Source: a virus (taxonomy: Duplodnaviria; Caudoviricetes). From it: DNA of 64,000 bases. A program made the translations under genes and the position numbers. Shown piece after piece: positions 36,684 through 60,374 of this stretch. The DNA is taken from positions 22,954 through 86,953 of the IMG/VR virus record IMGVR_UViG_2888028904_000001. One strand, given 5' to 3'. A model generated the notes under the pieces. The model was not told where the DNA came from and made no database searches. It worked only from the letters and a program-made list of their open reading frames with translations. Position 1 is the stretch's first letter, and every line of letters starts with the position of its first letter.

Positions 36684-37206
36684 CAATCCATTTTATAATA
36701 TATTTCGAACAGGGATTGAAAATATAAGAAATCAAAGCAAAGATCCTTTCCATAATAAATTATATTATTCCAATGTGATCAGCTTAATGGAACAGTATTT
36801 ATCAGGCTTATTTATCAATGAGATTACAAAAAATAGAAAATATCTGATTAAATTATCTTCTCATGGGAAATTTAATGCCGATAACCTACCGTTAGTTAAA
36901 GCAATAAATCTATCAATGAATGATATTGATAATATTCTTATTGATAAGATGAAAAATTTAGTCTGGCATCGCTTAAATGATATAGAAGGATACTTTAAAC
37001 ATGTTTTTAATATCAAGTTTAACATCAGTAGAGAATTACTTTCTTTATTAGAAACGAGACATGATCTTATTCATAGGAATGGGTTTAATATGGATGGTCA
37101 AGAAACACAAATCACAGAAGATAAACTAGTAAATTGTATTAAGGTTGTTGAAGATTTTATAAATGATATTGATAAAAAGTATAATTCCTTTCTTAACTCT
37201 CATTAA
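36673..37206 (+). CDS. HEPN-domain protein (putative RNase)
   Basis: ISLMEQYL and RHDLIH (Rx4H); similar to C-terminal half of 52614-53582. Confidence 0.7.
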   Translation: MTTNNPFYNIFRTGIENIRNQSKDPFHNKLYYSNVISLMEQYLSGLFINEITKNRKYLIKLSSHGKFNADNLPLVKAINLSMNDIDNILIDKMKNLVWHRLNDIEGYFKHVFNIKFNISRELLSLLETRHDLIHRNGFNMDGQETQITEDKLVNCIKVVEDFINDIDKKYNSFLNSH

Positions 37207-38654: not shown

Positions 38655-39383
38655 ATGATTGAACAAACAATTTTGGCGCAGGCAAAAGAGCAAGCGCCCT
38701 TAGAGGCATGTGGCTTATTGATAAGTACCGCACAGGGTGAGCAGTATTTACCTTGCGTTAATCAGCACGCTGATCCGAAAAACCATTTCACGATTTCTTT
38801 TGATGATTTTATTCGCGCCGAACAGCAGGGCGAGGTGATCGCGGTTGTACATAGTCACCCTGACGGCCAACAGTACCTCAGTACATTAGACCGACAACTG
38901 CAGGTGAACAGCGCATTGCCGTGGTGGGTGGTCTGTGATGAAAAAATTCATCGCTATCAGCCGGTGCCTCATCTGTTAGGTCGCCAATTTGTTCATGGCT
39001 CAACAGATTGTTATGGGTTGTTTCGTGATGCTTACCATTTGGCAGGGCATGAATTGCCTGACTTTGAGCGACATGATAATTGGTGGCGCCAAGGCAAAGA
39101 ACTGTACCTCGATAATATGGTGAGCACTGGTTTTCGGCAGGTCAAAAAAGAGGCGCAACCCGGCGATATTATTTTGTGTTGTTATGCCAGCTCTCGCGCC
39201 AACCACGCAGGGATCTATTTAGGCAATCAAACGATTTTGCATCACATTCCAAACCAACTTAGCAAACGCGAGGAGTATAACGAACGATGGCAACGAATGA
39301 CGCACTCAATTTGGCGTTACCGCGATTGGCAACCTTCCGACTTTATGGGAATTTGCAACGATTTGGACGTCGCTTTGATTTAA
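38655..39383 (+). CDS. Tail assembly protein K (JAB/MPN plus NlpC/P60)
   Basis: EACGL, VHSHPD, DCYGL, NHAGIY. Confidence 0.92.
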   Translation: MIEQTILAQAKEQAPLEACGLLISTAQGEQYLPCVNQHADPKNHFTISFDDFIRAEQQGEVIAVVHSHPDGQQYLSTLDRQLQVNSALPWWVVCDEKIHRYQPVPHLLGRQFVHGSTDCYGLFRDAYHLAGHELPDFERHDNWWRQGKELYLDNMVSTGFRQVKKEAQPGDIILCCYASSRANHAGIYLGNQTILHHIPNQLSKREEYNERWQRMTHSIWRYRDWQPSDFMGICNDLDVALI

Positions 39384-39937
39384 ATGTGAATACCGCCTCT
39401 GAAGGGCTTCACGCGCTTTTTATTCAAATTCCAGCCTTACGCCTCGCCATTCGTGATGGTTGGTATCAAGTTCGCATTGCCGGTACCGATATTTCCCCGC
39501 AAGAAATTAACCAAAAATTCAATGAAGCCTTACCGGATAATGCGGTCGTCCATATTGTGCCGAAATTATCAGGCGCTAAAAACGTCGGTGTTTTTCAGTT
39601 TGTTGCGGGTGCGGCCTTATTTTCATTGGGATGGTGGGGACCTGCGTGGATCTCCGCAACCGTTGCCACGTCTTTGATGGCAGGTGGTGCAGCCATGATG
39701 ATTGGTGGTGTCGCTCAAATGCTGATCCCCGCGCCTAAACCGCCTAATTTATCTCGTGGTGATGAAGAAAAAGGCAATACCTATTTTAGTAATCTTGATA
39801 ACGCGGTTGCACAAGGGATGCCGGTGCCCATTGCGTATGGTGAAATTATGTGTGGTTCACGCGTCATTTCACAATCGGTTGAGATTATGGATGACAGTGA
39901 CGGCGAAGATATCGATGCCGGTAAACACGGTGGATAA
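39287..39937 (+). CDS. Tail assembly protein I
   Basis: LYGNLQRFGRRF and QGMPVPIAYGE. Confidence 0.88.
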   Translation: MATNDALNLALPRLATFRLYGNLQRFGRRFDLNVNTASEGLHALFIQIPALRLAIRDGWYQVRIAGTDISPQEINQKFNEALPDNAVVHIVPKLSGAKNVGVFQFVAGAALFSLGWWGPAWISATVATSLMAGGAAMMIGGVAQMLIPAPKPPNLSRGDEEKGNTYFSNLDNAVAQGMPVPIAYGEIMCGSRVISQSVEIMDDSDGEDIDAGKHGG

Positions 39938-39951
39938 GAGGAGTTCGTATC

Positions 39952-42900
39952 ATGGGTAAGGGTGGTGGTGGTCAAAAAACACCGTATGAGGCACCAAACG
40001 ATTTAACATCACGTCAAAAAGCCTCATTAATTGATTTAATCAGCGAGGGGCCGATTGAAGGCCCTATTCATATTCAAGGCTCGATGGATGATTTAGGGTG
40101 TATTTACTTGGATGATACGCCTGTGGTAGACGGCTCTGGTAATAGCACCATTAATGGGATGTATGCACAATGGCGGGCGGGTACATTAGAGCAACCAGCA
40201 ATGAGTGGGTTTACGGCGTCTGCGAATGAAGTGCCGGTGGGGATTGAGGTTAAATATAATTCCCCCGTTACTCGTACCATCACCTCGCCTAATATTGACC
40301 GTTTACGCCTAACCTTTGGTACACAAGCTTTGGTTGAAACCAAAGATAATGGTGATCGCGTACCGACTTCTGTTCAATTGCAAATCCAAATCCAGCGCAA
40401 AGGGGCTTGGATAACAGAGAAAAATGTCACAATTAATGGCAAGCGCTCTAACTCACCTTATTTAATGGCCGTTGTGTTGGATGATTTACCGCCCGTTCCG
40501 TTTAGTATACGCATGATCCGTATCACTCAGGACAGCACTTCTGACAAAATTCAAAATAATACCGTTTGGTCGAGTTATTCTGAGTTAGTGGATATCTCAC
40601 AAACCTATCCGAGTTCTGCCGTTGCAGGATTGATGTTTGATAGTGAGCAGTTTGGCAATAAGTTTCCACGCCGTAATTACCTTATCAAAGGTCGCATTAT
40701 TCAGGTACCCAGTAATTATGATCCAGATAAACGGATTTATTCGGGGATTTGGGATGGCACCTTTAAACCCGCATTTACCAATAGTCCTGCATGGATATTA
40801 TGGGATTTATTAACCCATCCGCGTTATGGCATGGGGAAACGCCTCAATATCAGTGAAGTTGATAAATTCGCCCTGTATGCAATCGGTCGTTATTGTGATG
40901 GGCGATATGTGTGCCATGATGCGCATTATGCCGGTCTGGAATGGGCGAACATTAACCTTTATTCAAGATAGACCGTCTGATGTGGTATGGCCATATACCA
41001 ACGCTAATGTGATTGAGGGTAATTTCCAATACAGCTTTAGTGCATTAAAATCGCGTCATACTGCTGTCGAGGTTCGTTTTATTGATCCCGATAATGGTTG
41101 GAAAACCAGTGTTGAACTGGTTGAAGATGATGCCAGTATTGCCCGCTTTGGGCGTAATGTGATGCGTGTGGATGCCTTTGGTTGCACTAGCAGAGGGCAG
41201 GCTCATCGCCATGGTCTTTGGTTATTAATCACGGAAAAATTAGAGACACAGACGGTTGAGTTTACTGTCGGCAGTGAAGGCTTGCGTCATATGCCGGGTG
41301 ATATTATCGAAATTGCTGATAACTATTACGCGGACAATCAAATTGGTGGACGTCTGACACACATTGATTATGCCTCTCAAACATTAACCTTAGATCGCAA
41401 TATCGACACACCCAAAAGCGGTAAATCACGCGTCACACTCATCAATGCACTAGGTGATCCGCAATCTTATGAAGTGGTGAGCTATCTCGCATCTAATCAA
41501 ATAAAGCTGGATACCTTACCGTTAGGGTTACGAGAGGGCGGGATTTGGACGTTGACTCTCCCGTCTTTACGTCGCCGATTATTTCGCGCCATCAGTTTGG
41601 CTGATAATGGTGATGGTAGTTTTACGGTTATTGCTGTGCAACACATGCCCGAAAAAGAGGCGATTGTTGATAAAGGCGCTAAATTTGAGCCAAAGCCAGA
41701 GACGCCACTGGGTGGATTTATCCCACCGGTTGAAAATTTTTCTGTGGATATCGAATCGGATGCAAGTGCGTGGCAAGTAGAAGCCAGCTGGAACACGCCT
41801 TATTCCAGTCGAGGGGTAGACTTTTTATTAAAACTCACTACGGGTGATCGCATTGTCGGCACTGCCTCAACCACGGATACAATGTATCGTTTTGGTGGAC
41901 TGCCACAGGGTAATTACGTTTTATCCGTTGTGCCTCAAAATGATCGAAAACAAAAAGGCGAGGTGGCCACAACTTCATTCGCGATTAATCCACCCTTACC
42001 ACCGGGTTATATTGAAGTGAAGTCAGGTTATTTTAGCTTGGGTATTATTCCGCGTTCTGGCGGTCAAAATAGCTTACGAGCACAGTATGAGTTTTGGTTT
42101 TCAGAAAAACAAATCACGGATATTCGTGATGTGGAAAATCGTGCCGAGTATTTAGGTGTTAGTTCTATGTGGGTTATTCAAGGCCGAAACCTAAAAGCAG
42201 GGCATACCTATTATATTTATGTTCGCAGTATAAATGCTGTAGGGCGTTCAGAATTTGTGGAAGGAATAGGGCAACCAGAAAGCCACACCAGAGAGATATT
42301 AGATAACTTAGATAAAGAATTACAAGAAACCCAAGCATGGAAAACACTGAGTGAGACTGTCGATTGGAATGAAAATACGGTTAAAAGACTACGTTATAAT
42401 GAATACCGCTTATCTCGAAAGTTTGAAAAATACGGTGAACAAATAGAAATAGATATTAAAGATATCCGAACTCAAATAGAAAATACAAAAGCGGATATTA
42501 TTATCCAAAAAGAAGCCATTTCCTCAATAACTCAAGCCCAATCAACTTATCAACAACAGGTTCAAGCCAAGTTTAATCAGCAATCAGGTATTGTTAATCA
42601 AAAGATGAATGCGCAATTTACACAATCAGGTGGATATGCGAGGCATTCAATGAACATTACCATTATCCAAGATAATATTAAATATAATGCTGGTGGTCTT
42701 GTAGTGAGTGCTGAAATTAAAAATAAGAAGATCACTTCCTATATTGGGTTTAATGCCAATAATTTTGCCTTTTATAATCCTAAAAATAATCGAATGGAAC
42801 TGTTTATGTCAGCAAAAAATGGACAGTTTTTTATTCGAGATGCATTAATTGATAAAGCCATGATCAGAAAATTAGTATTATCAGAAGCCATTACCTCCGA

Positions 42901-43066
42901 TAACTATTATCCCGACGAGTCAGGTTTTATTATTGACGTAAAAAATAATAAATTAGAATTTTATGGCGGTAATGGTGGTACATCCCTCACAGAACAAAAT
43001 TTATATGTCAAAGATGAGTTTGGAAATAACGTTGTTATTATTGGTGATATCAGCAATGAAGAGTAA
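39952..43066 (+). pseudogene. J: Host specificity protein J, disrupted by internal deletion/frameshift near 40895
   Basis: ORF 39952-40971 follows lambda J to YAIGRYCD; ORF 40826-43066 resumes at GDMCAMMRIMPVWNG; intervening ~30 codons of J missing. Confidence 0.85.
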
Positions 43067-43388
43067 ATATGGCGTACTGGTTAGGTCTACATTATATGAT
43101 ATGGATTTATTAAATACCTCAGACAGAGTGGGAAGAATAGTCGGATATCATGATATAACACCCATCCCACTACATACTCAAAAAGAGTATATTTTTGATC
43201 ATCAAGATTTAAATAAATATGGCAAGGTTTTCGCTTGGTTTGGTTCGGCATTTTTGATGGGATTGGCAGGTGATATTAAATTAGAGATAAATAATGGGAT
43301 TATTAAACTTGAATTAAAAAATATGTATACCAATGGAGTTGATGGTGAATATGAAGATATTATAAAACTCTACTATGGTGTTTATTAA
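43056..43388 (+). CDS. Tail-tip accessory protein
   Basis: MKSKYG start, C-terminal YYGVY; after J. Confidence 0.6.
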   Translation: MKSKYGVLVRSTLYDMDLLNTSDRVGRIVGYHDITPIPLHTQKEYIFDHQDLNKYGKVFAWFGSAFLMGLAGDIKLEINNGIIKLELKNMYTNGVDGEYEDIIKLYYGVY

Positions 43389-44077
43389 TGAAAAGTAAAT
43401 ATGGAATAATCATCCGCGGTGAAAATAGGCAAGTTCAGATTGATAGCCATAACCAAGTGATGTGCTGTCTTGGTAAAAGAACCATAAGAATGTCTGGCGG
43501 GATAACATCAAATAATGAAGGATATAGCCAAGAGTTTAAAACACCGCCTCATCCCAATACAAAATTATTAGCAATATCACCTAAACATGCATTTATTAGG
43601 ATCATCTCAAGAATTATAAATAATGAGATGAAAGCGGTTTATATATCACAGCCTTGCTATGATTCAGAGGGTGTTGTTGATATTTATGGGTTTGGTGATC
43701 AGCCCAATAATATTTTTAATGAAAAATATGGATTGGTTGTAAAAAACAGCAAAACAAAAAAGACCGTTTATAATTCAAATTGGGGAATATTAAAGATAGT
43801 TGATTATTTTATTGTTTCACAAAAAGAGAATATGGATTATCCGTTACCGAATATAAAGGATTTAGCCTTTGTTTTTGGTGGTGGTATGGCTGGAATTTGT
43901 GAAGATGGTTTTGAAGGTGCTTTGATGGAAACTTTTATTCGAAGAGAAGAAAATGTGCTCCAAATTCGATATAAAGAAAGTATTAAATGGGCAACAAATG
44001 TTGCAGGAGAAGAAATATCGAGATTTCCCGCAACCTGTTTGGTGGTCGATGTGGGGAATATAAATAGGGTTTTTTAG
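43388..44077 (+). CDS. Tail-tip accessory protein
   Basis: MKSKYGII...QVQID, internal KYGLVV repeat, CLVVDV end. Confidence 0.65.
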   Translation: MKSKYGIIIRGENRQVQIDSHNQVMCCLGKRTIRMSGGITSNNEGYSQEFKTPPHPNTKLLAISPKHAFIRIISRIINNEMKAVYISQPCYDSEGVVDIYGFGDQPNNIFNEKYGLVVKNSKTKKTVYNSNWGILKIVDYFIVSQKENMDYPLPNIKDLAFVFGGGMAGICEDGFEGALMETFIRREENVLQIRYKESIKWATNVAGEEISRFPATCLVVDVGNINRVF

Positions 44078-44401
44078 TTTGTTATGAATTATTAGTCATA
44101 AGTTAATGTATAGTGATTTAAATTTTTACTACTAAGATCAGAGTTGTCTTTATAATTAGTATTCATATCAAGGAAATTAAAATATATAATAAATTAATAG
44201 TGATTGAGTTAATATAAATCATATGAATATAGCATATAGAAGTTAACTTATTTTTAGCTGATGTGAAGCTAAAGGTTAAATAAATGAGCTCTGAATCATA
44301 AGCAATAGTTATTTAATTTCTAGTTATTTATCATAATTGATGGATTATTTCTTTGTTTTTGATATACCTTGATTTTCATATGATTAAAAACTAAAATGAT
44401 G

Positions 44402-44590
44402 AAAGTTCTTTAGCGTTAAGACATTTTCTGACTAGTCAGGATTAGTCTAGTCGGGCGTTACGCCAGACTCTAATTTATTGGGAAACAATTGTTGTTGCGG
44501 TGAATAAATTTTAAATCCGCAACCCAACTGTAACCACAGTTAGTTTGCGGATTTAAAATTTATTCACCGCTTTCTTTAGTAAAGAACTTT
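44402..44590 (+). ncRNA. Retron msr-msd non-coding RNA (Ec78-like)
   Basis: a1/a2 inverted repeats AAAGTTCTTTA (44402-44412) and TAAAGAACTTT (44580-44590); candidate branch G 44413; msd hairpin with perfect 26-bp stem 44497-44522/44545-44570. Confidence 0.9.
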
Positions 44591-44699
44591 GTTAACATGG
44601 GTATAGAGTAAGCATTCTTGCTCTATACCCTAATGCTAGACTTAAATCTCAAAGGAGGATGGGGTATTTTTTTAATATTATGATTAGTTAAGGTTAATC

Positions 44700-45662
44700 A
44701 TGCTAAAAATTTTTCTTAAACTACAAAATGAATTAGCAACGAGTAAAGAGGACGGTACATTTCCAACTCGTGCTACAATAGAGCGTTTTGCTAGAACAGC
44801 TATGAATTGCTATAAAGTCTACTCCATTCCTAAGCGGACTTCTGGAGTAAGGGTGATTGCCCATCCATCAAAAGAGTTAAAAAATTATCAGAGAGCACTT
44901 GTCAGTATTCTTGAATCGCAATTTGAACCTCATCCCGCTTCGTATGCTTATCAAAAGGGAAAAAATATAAAACTAAATGCACAAAAGCATGCGAAGAAAA
45001 AATTTCTATTAAAAATGGATTTTAATGATTTCTTTAATAGTATTACCCCTCAAATATTTTTAGCAGAATTACGATATAGAAAAATTCTTTTATCTAAGGC
45101 AGAAGAAAATTTATTAATAAATTTATTTTTTTGGAATAAGACCAAGTCTGAAGATAAGAAGTTGGTCTTAAGTGTTGGTGCTCCTAGCTCTCCTATGCTT
45201 TCTAATTTCATAATGTATCGTTTTGATGAGATTGTCTCAGAGTATGCTAGAGAAAATTCAATTGTATATACAAGGTATGCAGACGATTTAACATTCTCTA
45301 CAAACATTAAAGATATACTATTTAGTACTCCTGAATATATAAAAGGTATCTTAAGAAATCTGTATCAACATTATATAACAATTAATGATTCTAAAACTGT
45401 TTTTACATCAATGGCTCACAATAGACATGTAACAGGGGTTACTATAACAAATAATTTTGAACTATCTATAGGTAGAGAAAGAAAAAGATTGATATCAGTC
45501 ATGACTCATAAATTTAAAATAGGAGTTTTGAATGAAGAAGATTTATGTTATTTACAGGGGCTATTGTCTTTTGCTATTAATATAGAACCAAATTTTATAA
45601 AACGGTTGTCAAGAAAATATGGGAAAGAAATAGTTAATGTGATTAGAATGGGGGGATTATGA
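44700..45662 (+). CDS. Retron reverse transcriptase
   Basis: NAQKH (region X), YTRYADD, VTG (region Y). Confidence 0.95.
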   Translation: MLKIFLKLQNELATSKEDGTFPTRATIERFARTAMNCYKVYSIPKRTSGVRVIAHPSKELKNYQRALVSILESQFEPHPASYAYQKGKNIKLNAQKHAKKKFLLKMDFNDFFNSITPQIFLAELRYRKILLSKAEENLLINLFFWNKTKSEDKKLVLSVGAPSSPMLSNFIMYRFDEIVSEYARENSIVYTRYADDLTFSTNIKDILFSTPEYIKGILRNLYQHYITINDSKTVFTSMAHNRHVTGVTITNNFELSIGRERKRLISVMTHKFKIGVLNEEDLCYLQGLLSFAINIEPNFIKRLSRKYGKEIVNVIRMGGL

Positions 45663-47308
45663 TGAGTGCCAGCTTTAAGCATGATAAATCTATTAAAGCG
45701 CTAGAAAAAAAAGCAAAAAAAGGCGGTTTTTATTCTGCATTGGAGTTATCTAATAATTTTAAAATAGGGAAATTTGTTGAAATTGATATTAATAAGTCAG
45801 ATTATTATTTAAATTTAGCATATAATAATTTCAAACGGCAAGATTTAAAATTAAAGTCAATAAAAATAAATAATTATAGATTATTTGATAATATTTCATT
45901 AGATGACTTTGATAGTTCACTAAATATATTTATAGGTAATAATGGTGCTGGAAAAACATCTTTACTAGATGCGATGGCCTTATCATTAAGCTGGCTTAGT
46001 ATTAATATTAGTAAAAATGGTGGATCAGGTGATTATATTGATATTGTAGATATAAATAATTATACTGATGCAGTATATTCAACAATAACATCTGTGATTC
46101 ATATAAATAAAAATATATCAGCTAGTTTAGAATTGTCGCAATTTAGAAATGGTATAGATAAAACAATAAAAAATAAATTAATTGATTTTAGATTGATCGG
46201 TTCTTTCTATAAAGAAGCTAACCGTATTAATCCGAATTTTAACTTACCATTATTAGCTTATTATAATGTAATGAGATCTTATGATGTAAACCCAAAGGAT
46301 TTTAAAGGATTGGATGATTTATTAGAAAATACTTTAATTGATAAATTTGATGGATATCAAAAATCTTTAACAGGAAAAACTGATTTTAAAGCTTTTATAA
46401 AATGGTATAAGAAATTGGATGATATTCTATTAAGAGAAAAAAAAACCGAACGTGGATTTGTAGATACAGTTTCTTCGTTTGAATTATCAGAGGATTTTTT
46501 AGATACGTTCAAATATTTCGCATCCGTTAATGATGCATTTAAAGATAAATACAAAGAACTTGAAATTAAATTGAATGAAATTAAAGATAGAAAAGAGAAT
46601 GAAAATATTTCTTATTCAAAATTAAAGCAATATAAAAATATTATTGATGACGTTATATATAAATTTATGGATGGATTTAGTAATATAGAAGTTCGAATTG
46701 AACCTATGATTGATTTGGTGATTAATAAAAAAAATAAAGAAATCAGCGTGATGAGACTATCTCAAGGAGAAAAAACACTTCTTGCTTTAATTTTAGATAT
46801 AACTCGTCGGCTGATAGTTTTAAATCCGTCTTTAGATGACCCATTAGAAGGGCAAGGAATTATTTTAATCGATGAATTTGATTTACACTTACATCCACAA
46901 TGGCAAAAAAATATTGCCACTAATTTAAAAAGTACATTCCCTAATTGTCAGTTTTTTTTAACTACTCACTCTCCTATTGTGATTAGTGAAGTAGATAGAA
47001 AACATATATATATTCTCGATACAATCGAAGACTCTATCTTTATTAGAAGGCCAAGCCAGACTTATGGATTGACGGCAAATGATATATTAAATGAATTAAT
47101 GGGGCCTGATGATGGAAAACAAATAATAAGAGCTAATGATGTGGAAGAAAAACTAGAGGAAATATTTTCGCTATTATCTAATGAAGATAATAAATCGATT
47201 AATTTGGCATCAAAAAAAATAGAAGAACTTGAATTATTACTTAATGGAGATATACCAGAGTTAGTAAGAGCGAAAGTACAACGAGATTTGTTAAAGGAGT
47301 TATTATAG
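45659..47308 (+). CDS. ptuA: Retron type I-A effector ATPase (PtuA-like, ABC fold)
   Basis: GNNGAGKT, LSQGEK, ILIDEFDLHLHP, TTHSP; overlaps RT stop. Confidence 0.88.
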   Translation: MMSASFKHDKSIKALEKKAKKGGFYSALELSNNFKIGKFVEIDINKSDYYLNLAYNNFKRQDLKLKSIKINNYRLFDNISLDDFDSSLNIFIGNNGAGKTSLLDAMALSLSWLSINISKNGGSGDYIDIVDINNYTDAVYSTITSVIHINKNISASLELSQFRNGIDKTIKNKLIDFRLIGSFYKEANRINPNFNLPLLAYYNVMRSYDVNPKDFKGLDDLLENTLIDKFDGYQKSLTGKTDFKAFIKWYKKLDDILLREKKTERGFVDTVSSFELSEDFLDTFKYFASVNDAFKDKYKELEIKLNEIKDRKENENISYSKLKQYKNIIDDVIYKFMDGFSNIEVRIEPMIDLVINKKNKEISVMRLSQGEKTLLALILDITRRLIVLNPSLDDPLEGQGIILIDEFDLHLHPQWQKNIATNLKSTFPNCQFFLTTHSPIVISEVDRKHIYILDTIEDSIFIRRPSQTYGLTANDILNELMGPDDGKQIIRANDVEEKLEEIFSLLSNEDNKSINLASKKIEELELLLNGDIPELVRAKVQRDLLKELL

Positions 47309-47310
47309 AT

Positions 47311-47958
47311 ATGAAGTATATTAACAAAAAAAAGGAACCAAAAAGCTTAACAGAATATAGAATGGAGGAAGGTGCGGTATATGATGGTTCTGGTTTTAAA
47401 AATGTAAAAATAGACATAAAAATGCAACTTTTAATAGAACAAGGGTATTTATGTGCATATTGTATGCAACGAATTGATTTTAATAATATGAAAGTTGAGC
47501 ATTTTTTATGTCAATCAAAATACTCTGATGAACAGTTGAATTATATGAATTTATTGGGATGTTGTCTTGGTGGTGAAAGTAATATAAAAAGAAATCAGAC
47601 ATGTGATACTAGAAAAGGTGCATTAGATGTATTATTCTCACCAGCAATTAGTTCACATAATATAGAAATAAAATTAAAATACAATACCCTTTCAGGAAAA
47701 ATAGAATCGGAAGATAAAGTTTTTAATGAGCAATTACAGTGTGTTTTAAATTTAAATGATCATCGTTTAATTTCTAATAGAAAAAACAGTTTAATAGCAG
47801 TTGAGAATATACTTGGTAATAAATCTGGATGTAGAACTAAAGGCCAAATACAAAACATTATAAATAGTTATGAGAAAGTTGATGGTGATAATAAATTTAA
47901 AGAATATTATGGAATTGTTTTATTTTACTTAAAAAAGAAATTATCTAAAATAAAATAA
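47311..47958 (+). CDS. ptuB: Retron type I-A effector HNH nuclease (PtuB-like)
   Basis: EQGYLCAYCM, VEHF, TCD..K; follows ATPase. Confidence 0.88.
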   Translation: MKYINKKKEPKSLTEYRMEEGAVYDGSGFKNVKIDIKMQLLIEQGYLCAYCMQRIDFNNMKVEHFLCQSKYSDEQLNYMNLLGCCLGGESNIKRNQTCDTRKGALDVLFSPAISSHNIEIKLKYNTLSGKIESEDKVFNEQLQCVLNLNDHRLISNRKNSLIAVENILGNKSGCRTKGQIQNIINSYEKVDGDNKFKEYYGIVLFYLKKKLSKIK

Positions 47959-48067
47959 GAGCACATTTGGGTTAGTATTTTTTGCGAAAAATTTCCATTT
48001 TTATGGTTATTCTAACATGCTGGAATAATCTAGTGCTTGGAATGATAAATAAATTATTTAAAGGTAA

Positions 48068-49108
48068 TATTCAATTCCCTTAATTGAAGTACACCAAATT
48101 AGAGTTTTCTAACTGCTTATGGTATGTCTCCTATGGGAGATTATTTAAACTTTCATAGGTTCGATTCAGATTATAATTTTGTTGCCAAAACTACACCATT
48201 TCGCGCATTTCGCGTACTTGGCTTAATGATTCAAATAAATAAGCACTTGAAAATTTTCGGCGGAACGAACTATTAGATCGTTTTATGAAACCGTCTTGTT
48301 AAGGTTTACCTGGTTGAATATGACACAACTCATCTTGATTATTTTTTAGTAATTCAATAAATTAACGGATATCAGTTCAGGCCTATTATCCATGAGAGTT
48401 TTTTTGGGCAATCCTCTGTTGATTTTCATTCAAACGTTCAAGTACTCTGATGATTCGTTCAGCAGGCAATGATGTATCAACTTCAATTGCCAGTCATTAA
48501 CGTGTACTTTCATCAATAGTATTCAATTTTCTAAATCGTTCACCGCAATATAGCTGTCATGCATAAAATCCAAGACCCATTGAAGATTTGGCATTTTTGT
48601 CATCACTAATGTTTTTTTCACGCACAGGCGATACTTTTTTAACGCGACGTTTTAAATTAAGTCCTAATTGACAATAAATGCGATAAATTCGTTTATGATT
48701 AAATGGATAGCATCGATCACAGAGAGATCTCTTTTACGTTAATCAACTGGTTAATGGTAAAATGTTGCGCAAGATAACGACGTCAGCTGACAAGCTTTAA
48801 TGACTGATAAACCTGCGCTCTTTAATAATTGAGCGCAGGATTTTTTCCAGCTATTACTAACCCTTTTTGCAAAAATTCCTTCATTGCATGATTTTCAAGG
48901 TTGATTTCAGTAAACACCTTTTTGAGTTTGGGGTTTTACTCTTTAAACTCTTTTAATCGTTTAACATCATTGATTTTTATGCCTGAATCAGTAAGTTTTA
49001 AAATATTAATGAGTTGAGTTTCAGTAAAACAAATTTTTCATCATGATCTCTACAATTGTTAGGGTCGAAAATCTAATTATAGCTGTCTTATTTTAGAATA
49101 AGTGGACA
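48068..49108 (-). mobile_element. Degenerate IS3-family element
   Basis: Broken frames with RIYRIYCQLGLNL, QWVLDFMHD, IQPGKP; imperfect terminal repeats. Confidence 0.75.
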
Positions 49109-49180
49109 CTCGACTACTTTAAGGACAGTAGTATTGTATTTGTAAAAAATGGAACTATTTTTTATTAAACTAAAAATTTT

Positions 49181-51913
49181 CTATCTCCAGTTATCATCCC
49201 ATTCTGAAGAGTAATTGAAGTAGTCATCATCCGTATGTTCGTAATTATTAATTAAGCCATTCAAATGGCGACGTTCTTTTTCGGGCCTGAATTTGACCAT
49301 TTCACGCAATGTAATTAATGCAGGCTTTATATTAGAATACCTCAATGTGAACTCTTCCAATAAAATAGAGAATTCGCAGCATTGTGCATAAAGGCACAGA
49401 GTACCACGCCACCAATCATTTTTCAGATAATGAATAATTTCTATTGAACGATTCAGCATTAATTCTAATGAGGCTAAATGCTCCTGATACCTTAGATGAC
49501 CAAAAGAAAAAGTATCGGATATTGGGTCAAAAATGAGTATATTACAAGGATCTATTAGTTCAGTAACTGCTAATGAACATGTTGATTCTTCATAATTAAA
49601 ACTAGGGTCATTAACCAAGAATGTAACAAGTTCCTGCTTGGTTGCTGCTCTTAAAGTCTTTGAGTGCATTGCGAAAGCAATCTTATGGGATGCCTTGATT
49701 AAAATACTTTGCGATAATTTTGTACGTTTAATATCTTTAAAGTTATCATAAGAACCACATAGTAATTCTAACCGTTTAGTAAAAATTTCACTTTCGCTAG
49801 ATGGTATATCTATTCCTTTTTCAGCCAAATCACATAACAGTGTTGCTAATAATGGAGTCCTGACTATGTCAGATATTTTTTTTGACTTAATATTATCAAT
49901 TATAATATCACTTAATGCTGGATTTTTATTTTTAAACCACGCTTGAATGAAACTGTAAAGCTGATTTTCACTGAAGGGCATGAGAGTAATTCCTAAAAAT
50001 TTAATTTCAGATAAATAGCTCACACAATCCCTGCTAGATATTAGTAATTGAATATTATCAAATTTATTTTTGAAGGTATTTATTGCTTCTATTATTCCAG
50101 GGAATTTTATATAGGCCTCATCTAAACCATCAAAAATAACTTTTATTCTTTTTTTATCTTGTAAATAAAGCTCAAGCTTTTCAATATTCTCACGAATAGG
50201 TTCGAGTGATTTAGAAACCAAAATCATACCCATTAAAATGTCATAGTTTTTTGATTTTGATTCAATATTCATATCAACTTTATTTAAGAATCGATTCAAA
50301 GGTAAGTATATAACTCCTCTACTTCCTTCTGACTCTAGTTTTCTTGCATACATTTGAAGTGTTGTTGTTTTTCCAGCACCAGCACTGCCATATACGGCTA
50401 TATCATGCTGACAATCGAAAAGTCTGAAAGGTGATGTCGAGAGACCATCTATAGCCCCCATACTATCTATAATTATTTCTTTTAAAAAAATTTTTTCACT
50501 ATTTTCTAGCTTATTTACAAGTATATCAAGAGCATTTAATGTAACCTGCGTATCATTAAGAAACCGAAAAATATCAACACTACTATTACCAGAATTTATA
50601 GCATGTATATCAAGTTTATATTTTTTGCATCTTTCATTTAACCATAAGTTAATCAACTCACTGTTGAACGCATATTCAATCTTAGGTTCTTCTTTATACT
50701 CGTTTCTCAATTTATATATTTCGATAGTTTGCAACTGAGAGATCTTAGATTTTTTTAAACATTCCACTATTCTAGGCAATAGACTTTTCGGATTTGCTTT
50801 TGCAAGATCTTGGATTTTATTTAAGTTTATAAAGCTAGTAAAATCATCGTTCGCTTTTTCTTGAAAGTTTTTCTCTAAACATTCTTTTAAGTGTGTAATG
50901 CTGTTAGTCATTAGAGCAATATTTAAATTCTCTAATTTATTATATGCAACTATATTATTAATGCTTGCCTCTAATTCTGAAATTACTTCTCTTATAAAGG
51001 ATATATTCCCAGCTAACAACTGATTAGCTTGTTCTATACTATTCTTAATATCTCGATTCTTTTTGGATGTAAAAATACTCAGTTCATCTTTGTATTTTTT
51101 CAGTATCGTAGAAGCATCCTGAGTTAGAGGTTCGATAGTAGTCAATGACTTCAAGGGATTATACACTGTTCGTTCAAACCATTCCCATTTACTTGGGATA
51201 ACATGAAATTTATCTGGCTTGATAGTAAATCGACTGTTTAGTAAAACGTTGCTATCGATAGTTCCCATGAAAAATGCAAGATCGCTATAACAATCAAGCT
51301 CGTGTATCGAATCTTGTTGATTTAAAGCAGACATTAATTCAACATTACATAATTGTTTTGCGTCTTGTGTACTGAATATATCTTCTACAGAAAGTAGAGA
51401 CTCCAGCAATGTTGGCTTATGTTTTTTTAACAAGTTAATAACTAATGGACCATCCAATATTTCGATTTTTTTTCCATTTATTTTTAGCATTCCATGAATT
51501 TCATCAATTAAACGAATGCTTATTTGGTATGGACTTGCTAGATATACTTGATCGGGAATGACTTCCTCTCCATTATGCAACTTGATAGGGTTTGTGAAAC
51601 ATTGCCTTAATTGAAAAACAAGATCTCCAAGAATTGCTTTCTCCGATGTGCTAGATTCTTCACCAATCTTTTTTGATTGGATAGCGTAACTCATAGTTTT
51701 GTTCACAGGTACTTCAACAAACGCTATCAAATCTTTTCCTGATTCATAAGGGCCTCCGTAGAAGTCAACACGGTAAAAACCCATAGATTCAAATAATGGT
51801 TTGATTAGATATTTAGAGAAATCGTCCTCTTTCATTTTTTGCATAGCTTTCAGATAAACCTGCTGGCTAGTATCTTCCATATTAATATTCTCTGTAGTTT
51901 TCGATGTGCTCAA
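49181..51913 (-). CDS. Restriction-endonuclease-like domain plus NACHT/STAND NTPase (putative anti-phage protein)
   Basis: N-terminal GPYESGKDL...AIQSK; Walker A GSAGAGKTT; Walker B VIFDGLDE; SSR and TPLLA. Confidence 0.8.
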   Translation of the reverse strand: MSTSKTTENINMEDTSQQVYLKAMQKMKEDDFSKYLIKPLFESMGFYRVDFYGGPYESGKDLIAFVEVPVNKTMSYAIQSKKIGEESSTSEKAILGDLVFQLRQCFTNPIKLHNGEEVIPDQVYLASPYQISIRLIDEIHGMLKINGKKIEILDGPLVINLLKKHKPTLLESLLSVEDIFSTQDAKQLCNVELMSALNQQDSIHELDCYSDLAFFMGTIDSNVLLNSRFTIKPDKFHVIPSKWEWFERTVYNPLKSLTTIEPLTQDASTILKKYKDELSIFTSKKNRDIKNSIEQANQLLAGNISFIREVISELEASINNIVAYNKLENLNIALMTNSITHLKECLEKNFQEKANDDFTSFINLNKIQDLAKANPKSLLPRIVECLKKSKISQLQTIEIYKLRNEYKEEPKIEYAFNSELINLWLNERCKKYKLDIHAINSGNSSVDIFRFLNDTQVTLNALDILVNKLENSEKIFLKEIIIDSMGAIDGLSTSPFRLFDCQHDIAVYGSAGAGKTTTLQMYARKLESEGSRGVIYLPLNRFLNKVDMNIESKSKNYDILMGMILVSKSLEPIRENIEKLELYLQDKKRIKVIFDGLDEAYIKFPGIIEAINTFKNKFDNIQLLISSRDCVSYLSEIKFLGITLMPFSENQLYSFIQAWFKNKNPALSDIIIDNIKSKKISDIVRTPLLATLLCDLAEKGIDIPSSESEIFTKRLELLCGSYDNFKDIKRTKLSQSILIKASHKIAFAMHSKTLRAATKQELVTFLVNDPSFNYEESTCSLAVTELIDPCNILIFDPISDTFSFGHLRYQEHLASLELMLNRSIEIIHYLKNDWWRGTLCLYAQCCEFSILLEEFTLRYSNIKPALITLREMVKFRPEKERRHLNGLINNYEHTDDDYFNYSSEWDDNWR

Positions 51914-52613
51914 TAATTATCATATTAATCATAGAGTAAACTAATGGTCTATATATTTATGTGAGGTGAATAGACAATTAAATGTATACTTTGAAAAGTA
52001 GACTCTCTTCGGTACGTTTTGCTATACGATGATCTCCGATTTTTTCACGTAGCATGCCGGTGAGTTTTCAACTGAACTAAAGCTTTATATGATACTGATG
52101 ATTGATTAATCTCAGGACTCCAATCCACTTTTAGGAGCACTTCTTTCTGATCTGACACCATTCTCTGCCAGCGAGATACACCGTGAATCTGGCTTTGATC
52201 TATCTGCTCTTCCTAATTCAATTGCAGTCGGTAGACCATGGCCTCGTTCCTAGGGATGCTAGGTGTCAGAAGCGTTGACATCTGCAACTGGGGTAGCTTG
52301 TCACTGATATTATTCATGGGGGAATTAGTGAACTACTGTGTGATACCACCCATTGTTAACACCTATCTATTTGTCCTCAAGGGGGAGAAAGAAAGCTTGA
52401 ATGCTCGTCTCATGGGGGCGATCCGCTATGAGCGAAGAGCAGGCGTTAAGTTACATCCGCAAACAGTGAATTAAATGTTATCTCATGTTATTAATGAAAT
52501 GTGATCGCTTCATGGATTACATGTAGATATGATTTAAACCCAATTAAAGGCTCGTTTCTTTAGCGTAAACTGACGAATAGATAACCAAACAAGAATTATA
52601 AAGGAACTATTGA

Positions 52614-53582
52614 ATGATTAGCAATTATAGAAGGCTTAAGTTTGAACTATGGGAGAAGTTTAAGCATCAATGTGCTTACTGTGGCACTAGACTTTATGAA
52701 CCATTGATGGCGGATGTTGAGCACTTTTTCCCAAAATCAAAGTATCCGGACTTTCTGGAAAATACAGATAATCTGCTCATCGTTTGTAGAGCGTGTAACA
52801 TGATTAAACGAGATCAGTTTCCTCTCGATGAGAATGGTAAACCATTACTCCTAAATCCTGTGAGTGAAAGTTTTTCAGAACATATAAAACAAAATAAAAA
52901 TGGATATTTAGAAGGTTTAACTGAGCGAGGGCATGCGACTATAAAGGTATTGCAGTTGAATAGGCCTTCATTAATCGAACAACGTATTCTAGATGTTATT
53001 GATATGCAGTTTGCTGATGATCGAACTCTATCTGGACACGATGTCTATATGACATTCAAAAAAAGTATGCTGAATGCCATAAAACTTAATGATGCTCAGT
53101 TACAAATTGATAGTGTTTTACAAGTACAAATGATTTATATGCTGTATGCCAATATAATAACATCTTTGGAAACATATTTATGTGATCGTTTTATTTCCTT
53201 GATCCATGGTAGTCAAGCGAACTTAAGAAGTTTTGTTGAAAATTTTAAAGATTACAATCAAGAAAAGTTCTTACTTTCGGAGTTATTTATAAAACATGAA
53301 GAAATAGAATCTAAAGCGATAGAGTCTATGAAGAGTGTTCTTTATCATGATCTACCAAAAGTAAGTGGCATGTATCGAGATACTTTTGGTATTAGATTTC
53401 CTATATTCGCAGATGTTTATAAAAGCGTGTTAATCAGGCATGACTTAGTTCATCGAGCAGGTAAAACAAAAGATGGAAATTTTCATGAATTAAATGCAGA
53501 GTCAGTTAAAGAGGTTGTTAAAAAATGCTTTGACTTGGTTGAACAATTAGAAAAAGAGCTTAAAGATTGTACAAAATTCTAG
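52614..53582 (+). CDS. HNH endonuclease-HEPN fusion protein
   Basis: CAYCG...VEHFFPK...CRACN.IK (HNH); ITSLETYL and RHDLVH (HEPN). Confidence 0.8.
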   Translation: MISNYRRLKFELWEKFKHQCAYCGTRLYEPLMADVEHFFPKSKYPDFLENTDNLLIVCRACNMIKRDQFPLDENGKPLLLNPVSESFSEHIKQNKNGYLEGLTERGHATIKVLQLNRPSLIEQRILDVIDMQFADDRTLSGHDVYMTFKKSMLNAIKLNDAQLQIDSVLQVQMIYMLYANIITSLETYLCDRFISLIHGSQANLRSFVENFKDYNQEKFLLSELFIKHEEIESKAIESMKSVLYHDLPKVSGMYRDTFGIRFPIFADVYKSVLIRHDLVHRAGKTKDGNFHELNAESVKEVVKKCFDLVEQLEKELKDCTKF

Positions 53583-53602
53583 GTGGTTGCCACCATATCA
53601 AA

Positions 53603-53624
53603 GGTGACCGCGCTAGCGGTCACC
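53603..53624. terminator. Hairpin after HNH-HEPN gene
   Basis: GGTGACCGC-gcta-GCGGTCACC 9-bp stem. Confidence 0.6.
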
Positions 53625-53903
53625 AAAAGTAATAAACTATTCATTCTCATTTTAATCGTCCTTAATCAATATATTTTTGTTTATTCAAATTGAACTGCTT
53701 CTGGCACTAAAGTACCCTCAAACAGCTCTCAAAGGTCAGGTTTGAGCGAACAGAAAACGTTCAACTTATTCAACAATGGTCTGCATAGCTTATAAAAGAC
53801 AAACAATAATTTACCTATTATTCTATAGAGTATTTATATACATTGAATTATTAATTTAGCTTGTTATTAAACATCCATAAGCTAAACGTATATAATAAAT
53901 TTA

Positions 53904-55205
53904 TTATTTATCTTCTTGCATATAGCTCAGCCATTGATTGAATAATTCATTTCTTTCATCATCAGGTAGATCTTCAACTTCAGGACAATCACAACCGATT
54001 ACTTTTACAGGACCATTTGATGTAAATATATATTTTGGATCACCTGATAAAGCATACAGTGTGAATGAGCTGCCACATGACTTGCAGCTATATTTATAAC
54101 TTTCATGTGGTGGTTTTATTATATTTACTCTCCCACACACACAAGGCAATACCATATCTTTATCTGAACCAATTAAGCCATCCTTGATGAAAAAATAATA
54201 TAGTGAGTTTCTGGATTTAATTTTCATTTTTATTACAGAGGACATTGTTGTCATTGTTAATTTAAATTTATCATATGACTCTTTTTTAAGTATCTTTTTC
54301 AGGCAAACAAGGATTGACGGTGTATATATTCCAATTAAAGCCCAGCAAGCTGTTTCTAAGAGTTCATACTTTATTTCACTAAAATTTTCCATGCTTAGTA
54401 GGTAAGGCCGTTCTTTCTCATCACAAAAAACAACATCTACAGCATCAGAACTTGTAAACAACGTGGATGTATAACCAATATGAGTGAATTCAGATGAGAA
54501 CTTGAATATGTTCTTCAGATCATCAGATAGGGAGTCTTTAGGAAATACGCCCAAAATGCTTTTGATATGATCGACTTTACTACCAAATGTAGTATGTGCG
54601 CATTGCGTAATTGATGAATTTTTCCATTGATTGTAAGGCAAGCTTTCAAACTCAGTGAGTGCCAATCTCAAGTCATCATTAAACATTGTATTTGAAATAG
54701 ACTTTGAAGCATATTTATTAAAACTATTCAATGAAACTAAGACATGATAATTTATATTTTTAGGTTCTAATAAGCAAAGTTGATATGAATCTGAAATTAA
54801 ACTATCGACCAACTGTCTGGATGCAGTTATTAATTCATTATAATGAGTGAATTTTTTTGCTTGCATATGGATGTTGTCCATATCGACACCCTCTCTAACA
54901 TCTGACTCAGTCAGATTTGAGAACTTTTCGAAAACCACAATACTATTTTTCACTATTCTACTAACAATTGGAAGTATTGAATTTAAATCCTTGTCTGATT
55001 TGTATTCTTCATTTAATGATGCATCACTTTCAAACTCTTCACTTATTTTTTTTTGGGTCTCATTCAATAGTTGTAAGTAGGATTTAAAGGCTGTGTTGAG
55101 ATAATTTATATTGTTGCATAAGACATTATAATCACTTAAAGCGGATGAGTTTTTTTTATTTGTTAAGTTGCTTGATATTATTTTTAAAATCTCTATCTCT
55201 GTCAT
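53904..55205 (-). CDS. Hypothetical 433-aa protein with C-terminal Zn-ribbon
   Basis: Helical body, FKFSSEFTH, CVCG...CKSCG; AAGGA RBS. Confidence 0.7.
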   Translation of the reverse strand: MTEIEILKIISSNLTNKKNSSALSDYNVLCNNINYLNTAFKSYLQLLNETQKKISEEFESDASLNEEYKSDKDLNSILPIVSRIVKNSIVVFEKFSNLTESDVREGVDMDNIHMQAKKFTHYNELITASRQLVDSLISDSYQLCLLEPKNINYHVLVSLNSFNKYASKSISNTMFNDDLRLALTEFESLPYNQWKNSSITQCAHTTFGSKVDHIKSILGVFPKDSLSDDLKNIFKFSSEFTHIGYTSTLFTSSDAVDVVFCDEKERPYLLSMENFSEIKYELLETACWALIGIYTPSILVCLKKILKKESYDKFKLTMTTMSSVIKMKIKSRNSLYYFFIKDGLIGSDKDMVLPCVCGRVNIIKPPHESYKYSCKSCGSSFTLYALSGDPKYIFTSNGPVKVIGCDCPEVEDLPDDERNELFNQWLSYMQEDK

Positions 55206-58512: not shown

Positions 58513-58599
58513 ATTATTTAAAAATAAGACTTGCTGTTCTCTTTGGTCAGAGTTACATGTGTAGTTATGCACAATAACTCATCAGAGGTATAAAATATC

Positions 58600-58790: not shown

Positions 58791-58863
58791 AAAATATAAA
58801 GAATTTATAAAGCTGGTGGCTTAACAGTCATCGGCTTTTTTATTGCGTAGAAAAGCACTTCTG

Positions 58864-60316: not shown

Positions 60317-60374
60317 CCGTATTCACTATAATCGGATAGTTCACATGTTCGGTTATTCCGAATAACTCATTTTG

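Follow-up and report, generated by a model that had tools for sequence, protein, structure and literature searches.

We analysed the locus at 44402-47958 of the window (the whole 64,000-nt stretch of DNA studied), where ORFs and a structured ncRNA define the gene order ncRNA, reverse transcriptase (RT), ATPase, and HNH nuclease on the + strand (Table 1). A sequence-only reading had placed a complete retron here, and all of the elements it listed were recovered, with profile searches matching the three ORFs to the proposed RT, ABC ATPase, and HNH genes. The RT gene and ptuA overlap by 4 nt, and a gap of 2 nt separates the ptuA stop from the ptuB start. The msr-msd region ends 110 nt 5' of the RT gene with no ORF between them, and no terminator was found at the 3' end of the operon.

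Table 1. Features of the retron locus (positions in the window).
Feature	Position	Strand	Details
Candidate sigma-70 promoter	44369..44397	+	TTGATT-17-TAAAAT; 9/12 matches; transcript would start approximately at a1
a1 inverted repeat	44402..44412	+	AAAGTTCTTTA; 11 nt, 100% complementary to 44580-44590
Predicted branching (priming) guanosine	G44413	+	TTTAGCG; directly 3' of a1, opposite G44579
msr stem-loop 1	44419..44448	+	RNAfold; variable length among aligned ncRNAs
msr stem-loop 2	44449..44469	+	AGTC-G-GGCG-TTA-CGCC-A-GACT; core of Rfam msr match
Clamp/linker	44470-44479	+	CTAATTTATT; A72 A73 T75 T76 A77 T78 invariant, T79 G80 nearly so (22 loci)
Termination sequence	44480-44485	+	GGGAAA; templating predicted to end with G44480
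msd template (predicted)	44480..44578	+	msDNA would be its complement, 99 nt; homology to Eco7 termination state
msd hairpin, 74 nt	44497..44570	+	35-nt arms (44497-44531 / 44536-44570) with 94% complementarity; loop of 4 nt
a2 inverted repeat	44580..44590	+	TAAAGAACTTT; partner of a1 (helix 1)
Hairpin between a2 and RT gene	44599..44630	+	arms of 14 nt, loop of 4 nt, T run absent; inverted-repeat search
Retron RT, 320 aa	44700..45662	+	profile matches; NAQKH 93-97, YADD 193-196, VTG 244-246
PtuA ABC/SMC-type ATPase, 549 aa	45659..47308	+	profile matches and motifs
PtuB HNH nuclease, 215 aa	47311..47958	+	H64; C48, C51, C85, C98

Several lines of evidence establish the ncRNA. The Rfam msr family RF00170 matched 44405-44486 with 59.5 bits against a gathering score of 52 (E 2.9e-9), and the 193-nt ncRNA folded at -76.6 kcal/mol compared with -37.4 +/- 3.8 kcal/mol for 200 shuffles (z -10.3, with 0 of 200 as good); the msr-msd structure is therefore above chance. 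The 11-bp a1/a2 repeats claimed earlier proved to be perfect, and the claimed msr stem AGTC.GGCG-tta-CGCC.GACT coincided with stem-loop 2. In an alignment of ncRNAs from 22 loci, 88.0% of the cells expected to pair did so, as opposed to 31.6-42.5% when the partners were slid. Both sides had changed in 14 of 27 pairs, and none of 500 shuffles attained the observed covariation score. Seven of the 11 pairs of the a1/a2 helix (helix 1) had changed on both sides, stem-loop 2 (helix 2) was paired in 90.9% of cells, and the msd stem (helix 3) combined an invariant GCG/CGC base with five following pairs that covary. The TAGC branch context proposed around G44413 was also borne out, as this guanosine occupies a column (G13) invariant in all 22 ncRNAs. 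By homology to Eco7 G0/G127, G44413 is predicted to be the branch point (PMC12673091). Stem-loop 2 would likewise correspond to the "handle" held by the RT thumb (PMC12673091, PMC12475279), and stem-loop 1 is absent from the mature Ec78 complex, being removed (PMC12673091, PMC12819146).

Promoter-like sites were about as frequent in the region as expected by chance (32 found, 30.8 expected), so the promoter listed in Table 1 is a candidate only. At the other end of the ncRNA, an MFE hairpin begins within approximately 10 nt of a2 in 22 of 22 loci, with z < -2 in 20 of them; the hairpin at 44599-44630 is possibly the ncRNA 3' end or an attenuator. An apparent compensatory change in stem-loop 1 relative to the 90%-identical allele L003 (C44432/G44435 to T/A) was rejected, as the two bases are two apart, lie in the loop, and are unpairable.

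RNAfold reproduced the 74-nt msd hairpin in the form previously described, with 26 perfect pairs, a single pair flanked by two mismatches, and a 6-bp stem that closes on a 4-nt loop. The termination motif fits the Eco7 state, in which A(-47) occupies the site of the incoming nucleotide and U(-49) is flipped out (PMC12673091). By this analogy, we predict an msDNA of approximately 99 nt, or approximately 95 nt should its first 4 nt be lost, as happens in Ec78. The same length rule gives 83 nt on Ec83 and agrees with the published Eco7 figures (127 - 50 = 77; PMC12673091). The "long AT-rich msd stem" noted earlier is thus present but typical of the family: because 99 nt falls inside the 76-107 nt range predicted for related loci, the stem is not exceptional. 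The tip of the hairpin lacks a loop motif that 11 of 22 related loci carry. In known systems, the msDNA hairpin is the spine that bears four PtuA subunits (PMC12819146, PMC12475279).

The RT carries both NAxxH and VTG, which are retron-specific RT motifs. Its best PADLOC model was RT_I-A (435 bits), it exceeded the NCBIfam retron_St85_RT cut-off (315 versus 235), and it matched the solved type I-A RTs of FORC82, Ec78, and Ec83 with 297, 287, and 285 bits, respectively (E 1e-84 to 1e-87). The VTG motif is named in PMC12475279.

The ATPase contains a Walker A motif (GNNGAGKT, residues 93-100), LSQGE at 367, a Walker B motif (IILIDE, 401-406), and H410/H412, and it matched the PADLOC models PtuA (613 bits) and ATPase_I-A (491 bits). 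Among solved PtuA proteins, it scored highest with Ec83 (275 bits), followed by FORC82 (222) and Ec78 (210). Because the alignment with Ec83 PtuA begins at residue 12, the protein includes the N-terminal domain.

PtuA and PtuB are a textbook pair, and PtuB proved to be the partner more distant from characterized proteins. It matched PADLOC PtuB (231 bits), HNH_I-A (156 bits), and TIGR02646 (57.2 versus a cut-off of 52.15), and a Pfam search returned no match. Sequence comparison with solved structures gave E values of 5e-5 for Ec83, the best, 0.01 for FORC82, and 0.08 for Ec78. The AlphaFold model (pLDDT 96.7) found PtuB chains as all of its best 12 PDB fold matches, with TM scores of 0.60-0.73 at ranks 1-11 and 0.46 at rank 12. 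In fold alignments, PtuB was 16-22% identical to solved PtuB proteins, and no other protein found exceeded 55% identity to it. PtuB is thus strongly diverged in sequence, yet its predicted fold agrees with PtuB structures. All of the motifs essential in Eco7 have equivalents in the three proteins, including YADD, Walker A N95, the Walker B D/E, H400/H402, and the PtuB His and four zinc Cys (compared with PMC12673091).

We compared these features with the definition of type I-A retrons in Table 1 of Mestre et al. 2020 (PMC7736814), and the locus has every sequence-testable feature of that type: a clade-1 RT with NAxxH, YADD, and VTG; an IA1/IIA1-family structured ncRNA adjoining the RT gene, in which a1/a2 and a branching G are combined with an msr handle and a long msd hairpin; an ATPase of the ABC class that carries both Walker motifs, A and B; and a second associated protein whose HNH endonuclease domain is N-terminal. 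Some annotation would fit a stand-alone Septu (PtuAB) system with an unrelated RT as its neighbor, or else a type II-A (St85-like) retron: the NCBIfam name of the RT family is "retron St85 family," PADLOC RT_II-A also scores 371 bits on the RT, and the best PADLOC models for PtuA and PtuB carry the Septu label. However, RT_I-A outscores RT_II-A, and type II-A (St85/Ec86-like) retrons have an effector other than the ATPase and HNH pair that is present here. The type II-A-like msr position approximately 1.1 kb 5' of the RT gene occurs in loci L012-L014 and is absent at this locus, where the msr-msd lies close to the RT gene without an intervening gene. The RT/ptuA overlap, the retron-type PtuA N-terminal domain, to which the alignment of Septu PtuA 8ee4 (residues 298-495 of the present protein only) does not extend, and the fact that ptuA directly follows the RT gene in 19 of the 21 related loci that have this ncRNA also argue against both of these arrangements, which we consider highly improbable. 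We instead conclude, with a probability of roughly 0.88, that the locus is a functional type I-A retron ("retron-Septu") that acts as a phage-triggered toxin-antitoxin system. In the papers cited, anti-phage defence dependent on the RT, ATPase, and HNH proteins is demonstrated for Eco7 (PMC12673091) and FORC82 (PMC12475279) only.

Comparison with solved systems refined the earlier description of the retron as Ec78-like, which held for the type I-A kind but not for any special closeness to Ec78: the RT is about equally similar to those of FORC82, Ec78, and Ec83, PtuA is nearest to that of Ec83, PtuB barely matches any solved PtuB in sequence, and both proteins fell below the NCBI Ec78 equivalog cut-offs (467.2 versus 500 for PtuA, NF041760; 122.1 versus 150 for PtuB, NF041761). 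Retron-Eco4 (Ec83; E. coli, PDB 9e8z/9e90, our locus L001) has in common with our locus the ncRNA-RT-PtuA-PtuB order, the 67-nt spacing from branching G to termination G, the clamp CTCTAATTTATTG, and the GCGG...CCGC base of the stem; no other solved system matches our PtuA or PtuB better. Identity to Ec83 is nevertheless 50% for the RT (139/279), 37% for PtuA (163/446), and 33% over only 120 aa for PtuB. Ec83 also differs in having an 83-nt msDNA rather than the predicted 99 nt, another hairpin tip, and a PtuB of 260 aa rather than 215 aa. Retron-Eco7 (Ec78; E. coli, PDB 9vhe, 9l7p, 9nnb, and others) shares the type I-A architecture and the predicted termination geometry, and its msDNA is 77 nt. 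The FORC82 type I-A retron (E. coli, PDB 9n69/9n6b/9n6c; PMC12475279), which provides the best solved RT match, has the same architecture and an msDNA of approximately 90 nt that forms a "harpoon" through four ATPases, and its nuclease cuts tRNA-Ser (PMC12475279). Stand-alone Septu PtuAB (E. coli, PDB 8eea/8ee4) has the same ATPase and HNH pair without an RT or ncRNA, and its chain 8eea_G is the best fold match of PtuB (TM 0.73); the retron-type N-terminal region of PtuA is not common to both. The nearest named relatives belong to a Providencia rettgeri type I-A retron with both proteins on one contig (RT WP_273837824.1, HNH WP_273837818.1). Its RT is 62-63% and its PtuB 51% identical to ours, with PtuB in the same subfamily, so that 37-49% of residues differ.

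Close and distant relatives were also sought in wider collections. An RT-alone scan with one genome per species gave no close relatives, and a scan with a 34-sequence alignment, also with one genome per species, returned 80 loci that were mostly distant. Phage sequences contained neither near nor distant DNA matches to the locus, and matches in E. coli genomes and plasmids were short stretches only, at 60-88% identity. The four best-matching public DNA runs, from four studies, carried an L003-like allele with 243 differences from ours and a single gap across 44404-47957; the exact allele was not found in public sequencing runs, and no RNA run containing the locus was listed. The earlier suggestion that the class is known and this member may be new is consistent with these searches: the sequence variant appears to be new and its kind is known. 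The class has drawn intensive study since 2025.

The retron lies in the cargo slot of a defective lambdoid prophage, flanked by tail gene J on one side and the right prophage end on the other. In this carrier the head and tail-shaft genes are gone, and a terminase-tape measure fusion ORF is present at 32567-35908. Because the carrier is defective, decay of the retron is conceivable, and the retron could be an inactive relic that makes no msDNA, gives no defence, and drifts in a dead prophage; its G+C content of 25-30%, lower than that of the flanking DNA, and the missing exact allele in public runs would fit such a state. Against this, none of the three ORFs is truncated, no catalytic motif is missing, and the a1/a2 repeat and 26-bp stem are perfect. 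Relative to L003, dN/dS was 0.16 for the RT, 0.16 for PtuA, and 0.22 for PtuB, showing that all three proteins are under purifying selection. Conservation of the ncRNA (182/189 identical) exceeded that of synonymous sites and of the 200 nt of upstream DNA (155/200). We therefore regard a relic as improbable and favor an intact, functional type I-A retron.

On the basis of described type I-A systems (PMC12673091, PMC12475279, PMC12819146), such a retron would work as follows. From the sequence of the locus itself, a transcript starting near 44402 would contain the msr-msd region and, where transcription reads through, also the coupled genes for the RT, PtuA, and PtuB. By homology to Eco7, Ec83, and FORC82, the RT would grip stem-loop 2 (44449-44469), prime at the G44413 2'-OH, copy from 44578 down to 44480, and halt on reaching the conserved UUAUUG clamp. 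This would yield an msDNA of approximately 99 nt, whose 74-nt hairpin would stay on the RT through a 6-bp RNA-DNA hybrid. After removal of the 5' branch, the DNA hairpin would serve as the spine for a PtuA tetramer and PtuB, with the HNH nuclease held inactive. Degradation of the msDNA by a phage flap nuclease or exonuclease would then free PtuAB, which would cut a host tRNA and stop translation in an abortive infection.

The tRNA target may differ from that of Ec78. The statements in the sequence-only reading that Ec78/Ec83 retrons control PtuAB and that the Ec78 effector cleaves tRNA-Tyr are correct; Ec78/Eco7 PtuAB causes tRNA-Tyr cleavage (PMC12673091, PMC12819146). The tRNA-Tyr target is not transferable to the present retron because the FORC82 nuclease, also of type I-A, cuts another tRNA. 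The same assembly might even perform other chemistry, with a diverged PtuAB that mainly nicks DNA or cuts non-tRNA RNA, unlike the Ec78 and FORC82 tRNases. The low identity of PtuB to solved and other proteins and its best fold match to a stand-alone Septu chain point in this direction, as does one study in which purified Ec78 PtuAB nicked a plasmid and left tRNA-Tyr uncut in vitro (PMC12819146). However, both in vivo targets described in the papers cited are tRNAs, Tyr (PMC12673091) and Ser (PMC12475279), and the PtuB catalytic His and zinc Cys are conserved. We thus consider non-tRNA chemistry unlikely and retain tRNA cleavage as the expected activity of the freed nuclease.

Our analysis identifies an intact type I-A retron, maintained by selection, that is distant in sequence from Ec78, Ec83, and all solved structures, and apparently also from Vc95 and Vp96, the other two of the four described members. 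It adds a further example of a variable prophage cargo slot bearing a retron. Divergence is greatest in the nuclease, and the retron would therefore be a useful comparison point for tRNA choice and for the phage nucleases that trigger this class. For editing, the predicted 99-nt RT-DNA with its clean 26-bp stem could accept a donor. A more speculative possibility, less likely than not, is that the retron represents an unstudied type I-A branch with members in Providencia, Vibrio, Shewanella, and Photobacterium. Its substrate could then be neither tRNA-Tyr nor tRNA-Ser, and its longer msDNA, with a paired tip replacing the loop motif of half of the related loci, could be read by other phage nucleases. 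Type I-A retrons would in that case form a family in which the specificities of both the sensor, in the msDNA tip, and the target, in PtuB, can be exchanged.

The retron locus carried by the window is a genuine, intact type I-A retron, of a kind that is now well understood. The a1/a2 repeats, branching G, msr stem, msd hairpin, and three genes claimed in the sequence-only reading were all present in the sequence at 44380-44700 and in the ORFs. We observed a match to the Rfam msr model (RF00170) at 44405-44486 with 59.5 bits (gathering score of 52; E 2.9e-9), and the remaining Rfam matches to the ncRNA, which fell far under their own thresholds, only reflect the long msd hairpin. The 193-nt ncRNA folded at -76.6 kcal/mol, compared to -37.4 +/- 3.8 kcal/mol in 200 dinucleotide shuffles (z of -10.3; 0/200 as good). 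RNAfold drew the msd hairpin as 26 pairs, then a mismatch, one pair, and another mismatch, followed by 6 pairs.

Features of the retron and of the prophage DNA around it, in window positions
Feature	Positions	Strand	Description
Replication gene, DNA methyltransferase, endolysin, spanin, small terminase			Upstream end of gene order, in turn
Terminase-tape measure fusion ORF	32567-35908	+	1113 aa; lambda-type large terminase N-terminal ATPase part (residues 41-210) and tape-measure domains (422-983)
Tail-tip genes, J last	J 40826-43066		Downstream of fusion ORF
Two small phage ORFs			Between J and retron
a1	44402-44412	+	AAAGTTCTTTA; 11-nt perfect inverted repeat with a2
Predicted branching G	44413	+	Directly 3' of a1, in TTTAGCG; opposite G44579
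msr handle stem	44449-44469	+	AGTC-G-GGCG-TTA-CGCC-A-GACT
msd hairpin	44497-44531 / 44536-44570	+	Arms of 35 nt each, 94% complementary; 4-nt loop
a2	44580-44590	+	TAAAGAACTTT; 11-nt perfect inverted repeat with a1
RT	44700-45662	+	320 aa
PtuA	45659-47308	+	549 aa
PtuB	47311-47958	+	215 aa
NACHT-domain ATPase	49181-51913	-	910 aa; directly after retron
PtuB-like HNH protein	52614-53582	+	322 aa; N-terminal HNH, PADLOC PtuB 91 bits
Lambda-type integrase	56587-57690	-	Last in gene order; start of second prophage
Lysozyme of second prophage	61159-61629		
Bacteriocin-like gene	61780-62604	+	274 aa; colicin pore-forming domain (169 bits) and pyocin-S domain; adjoins second lysozyme

The RT matched Pfam RVT_1 (93.6 bits), scored higher with PADLOC RT_I-A (435 bits) than with RT_II-A (371 bits), reached 315 with NCBIfam retron_St85_RT (cut-off of 235), and contains the motifs NAQKH (residues 93-97), YADD (193-196), and VTG (244-246). 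PtuA, the ABC ATPase, matched AAA_21, AAA_15, AAA_23, and SMC_N in Pfam, as well as PADLOC PtuA (613 bits) and ATPase_I-A (491 bits). Mutation of N95, D395/E396, or H400/H402 in PtuA of Eco7 (Ec78) abolishes defense (PMC12673091), and these residues have counterparts in the motifs of the window PtuA, which are Walker A (GNNGAGKT, 93-100), the signature (LSQGE, 367), Walker B (IILIDE, 401-406), and H410/H412. The HNH protein PtuB had no Pfam match and was instead recognized by PADLOC PtuB (231 bits), HNH_I-A (156 bits), and TIGR02646 (57.2; cut-off of 52.15). Its residues C48, C51, H64, C85, and C98 were invariant in 37 aligned relatives, H64 being the counterpart of the catalytic His in Eco7 PtuB and the Cys residues those of its four zinc ligands (PMC12673091). 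An AlphaFold model of PtuB on the same 37-relative alignment had a mean pLDDT of 96.7 and a pTM of 0.91, and all 12 of its 12 best PDB fold matches were PtuB chains (Septu, Ec83, FORC82, and Ec78) at 16-22% identity, with TM scores of 0.60-0.73 for ranks 1 to 11 and 0.46 for rank 12. The ptuA start overlaps the RT stop by 4 nt and 2 nt separate the ptuA stop from the ptuB start; RT, ptuA, and ptuB look like one coupled operon.

The locus had been called Ec78-like type I-A, and our scores supported the type I-A assignment but not Ec78 as the nearest relative. Against solved structures, the RT scored 297 bits with FORC82 (an E. coli type I-A retron), 292 with 22et, 287 with Ec78, and 285 with Ec83, and PtuA scored 275 bits with Ec83, 222 with FORC82, and 210 with Ec78. 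For PtuB, the E values were 5e-5 with Ec83, 0.003 with Septu, 0.01 with FORC82, and 0.08 with Ec78. Both PtuA (467) and PtuB (122) fell below the NCBI Ec78 equivalog cut-offs of 500 and 150, respectively. In pairwise comparisons, Ec83 shared 50% identity with the window in RT, 37% in PtuA, and 33% over 120 residues in PtuB. We rejected the related E. coli locus L001 (NZ_CP070902.1) as Ec78 despite its NCBI product name, "retron Ec78 ... PtuA"; L001 is Ec83, since its PtuA alignment was the same as that for PDB 9e8z, "Retron Ec83," and the msDNA length rule from Eco7 gives 83 nt for it. This NCBI name is generic and does not tell which retron is present.

Type I-A retrons described in the literature include Ec78, Ec83, Vp96, and Vc95 (PMC7736814), and the suggestion that the window carries a new member of this class was borne out. 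Of 6537 RT candidates from a collection of 5.8 billion proteins, 3736 were relatives with E <= 1e-30; for the window RT there was a single cluster at 90% identity (P0002), with the next at 62-64% (e.g., Providencia rettgeri and Pseudoalteromonas arctica). For PtuB, 252 candidates from the same collection included 145 relatives with E <= 1e-5, of which the closest was 55% identical, and the named ones are "retron system putative HNH endonuclease" or TIGR02646 proteins of Providencia, Vibrio, Shewanella, Photobacterium, and Yersinia.

We gathered loci with related RTs from 3 viral contigs, 80 genome contigs, and 80 metagenome contigs, and three scans of these loci detected the Rfam msr in 11/13, 1/16, and 13/20. 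For ncRNA comparison, we kept the window and 21 loci with an msr within ~350 nt of the RT, leaving out L008 (ncRNA identical to that of L001), L010 and L011 (no msr match), and L012 to L014, which have another architecture with the msr ~1.1 kb upstream of the RT. The RTs of these last three loci are 45-46% identical to the window RT, and neither PtuA nor PtuB was detected in them; their layout is presumably type II-A with the same ncRNA family. A PtuA homologue lay directly 3' of the RT in 19 of the 21 kept loci, the contig stopping at the RT in the other two (L009 and L113), and PtuB was detectable in 14.

Across the 22 aligned ncRNAs, the invariant elements were the branch context, the handle stem, the stem base GCG...CGC, clamp columns A72, A73, T75, T76, A77, and T78, the GTA at the junction into a2 (A178, G179, T180, and A181), and G184 inside a2. 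We counted covariation in a 27-pair structure composed of a1/a2, the handle, and the first 8 msd stem pairs. Standard pairs filled 88.0% of 594 cells, compared to 31.6-42.5% when 3' partners were slid by 1 to 3 columns, a count favored by drawing the structure from the window's own sequence. Both sides had changed in 14/27 pairs, and 0/500 shuffles reached the covariation score. All 22 loci also contain a hairpin within ~10 nt 3' of a2 (44599-44630 in the window; z < -2 in 20/22). As read from the sequences, a T run follows this hairpin in many loci, as in a terminator, and none does in the window. The hairpin may determine how much ncRNA there is relative to RT-effector mRNA.

At termination, templating in Eco7 has ended with base -50; U(-49) is then flipped out, the incoming-nucleotide site contains A(-47), and the RNA-DNA hybrid is 6 bp. 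The Eco7 msdDNA has 77 nt, and G0 lies opposite G127 (PMC12673091). The conserved UUAUUG motif places the last templated base of the window at G44480, which, with A44578 as the first, gives a predicted msDNA of 99 nt; removal of the first four nucleotides, as in Ec78, would leave about 95 nt. Predicted msDNAs ranged from 76 to 107 nt across the 22 loci (median of 87.5), so that of the window is long for the family and is equalled or exceeded in two other loci. Perfect stems of at least 25 pairs, and a G+C of 0.34-0.39, also occurred in several other loci. Thus, the long AT-rich msd stem that had been singled out is ordinary in this family. The msd tip of the window is a 6-bp mini-stem, whereas 11/22 loci (L004 to L007, L009, L024, L086, L090, L093, L095, and L113) have the loop motif [CT]TC[AG]T[ATC]C[CT]TC, which is absent from the window, L003, and Ec83.

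Comparison with L003, a viral contig colinear with window positions 38788-48068 at 91% identity and with an RT 90% identical to that of the window, provided evidence at the sequence level that the retron is maintained. dN/dS was 0.16 for RT, 0.16 for PtuA, and 0.22 for PtuB (dS of 0.14-0.33), and the ncRNAs were identical at 182/189 positions, compared to 155/200 in the 200 nt upstream. The L003-type allele occurred in four public runs from four studies, and the window allele was in none of these four.

The provirus record that contains the window is 86,953 bases long. The terminase-tape measure fusion in the window appears to have arisen by in-frame deletion of every head and tail-shaft gene, implying that the prophage carrying the retron is defective. 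Positions 58586-61794, after the integrase, are colinear with and 72-73% identical to 25485-30212, so a second lambdoid prophage starts at the integrase, and the two prophages appear to be in tandem. The methyltransferase of this second copy is broken into two ORFs, 58843-59283 and 59396-59878. The retron occupies the cargo slot of the first, defective prophage, which extends from J to the right prophage end. The NACHT ATPase, which had no PADLOC match and matched EruA only weakly (26 bits; cut-off of 1000), may be a separate defense gene. No PtuA lies beside the additional PtuB-like protein, whose C-terminal part matches phrog_29321, as does ORF 36673-37206, and a 433-aa ORF between its gene and the integrase had no matches. 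In L003, window stretch 48068-55546, including the NACHT ATPase, is replaced by ~2.9 kb of other DNA, so the retron travels with the tail module while neighboring cargo varies. Among phages, Providencia phage PSTCR8lys had the nearest tail module (69% identity, 50% query coverage). We infer that the host probably belongs to the Morganellaceae. The retron has a lower G+C (0.25-0.30) than the tail region (0.39), and no tRNA genes were found in the window.

The earlier statement that the Ec78 effector cleaves tRNA-Tyr agrees with the report that Eco7 PtuAB causes tRNA-Tyr cleavage (PMC12673091), a result stated for Eco7; for FORC82, the cleaved tRNA is tRNA-Ser (PMC12475279). One group reported that tRNA cleavage was not reproduced in vitro and that DNA nicking was seen instead (PMC12819146). 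Reported triggers that degrade msDNA are T5 D15 and the T3 and T7 exonucleases (PMC12673091, PMC12475279, and PMC12819146). The conserved parts of the window locus suggest that the same assembly steps may apply to it. By homology, the RT-msDNA complex would scaffold a PtuA tetramer together with PtuB and keep it silent until the msDNA is degraded by flap nucleases or exonucleases of a phage; PtuAB, once released, would lead to cleavage of a host tRNA.
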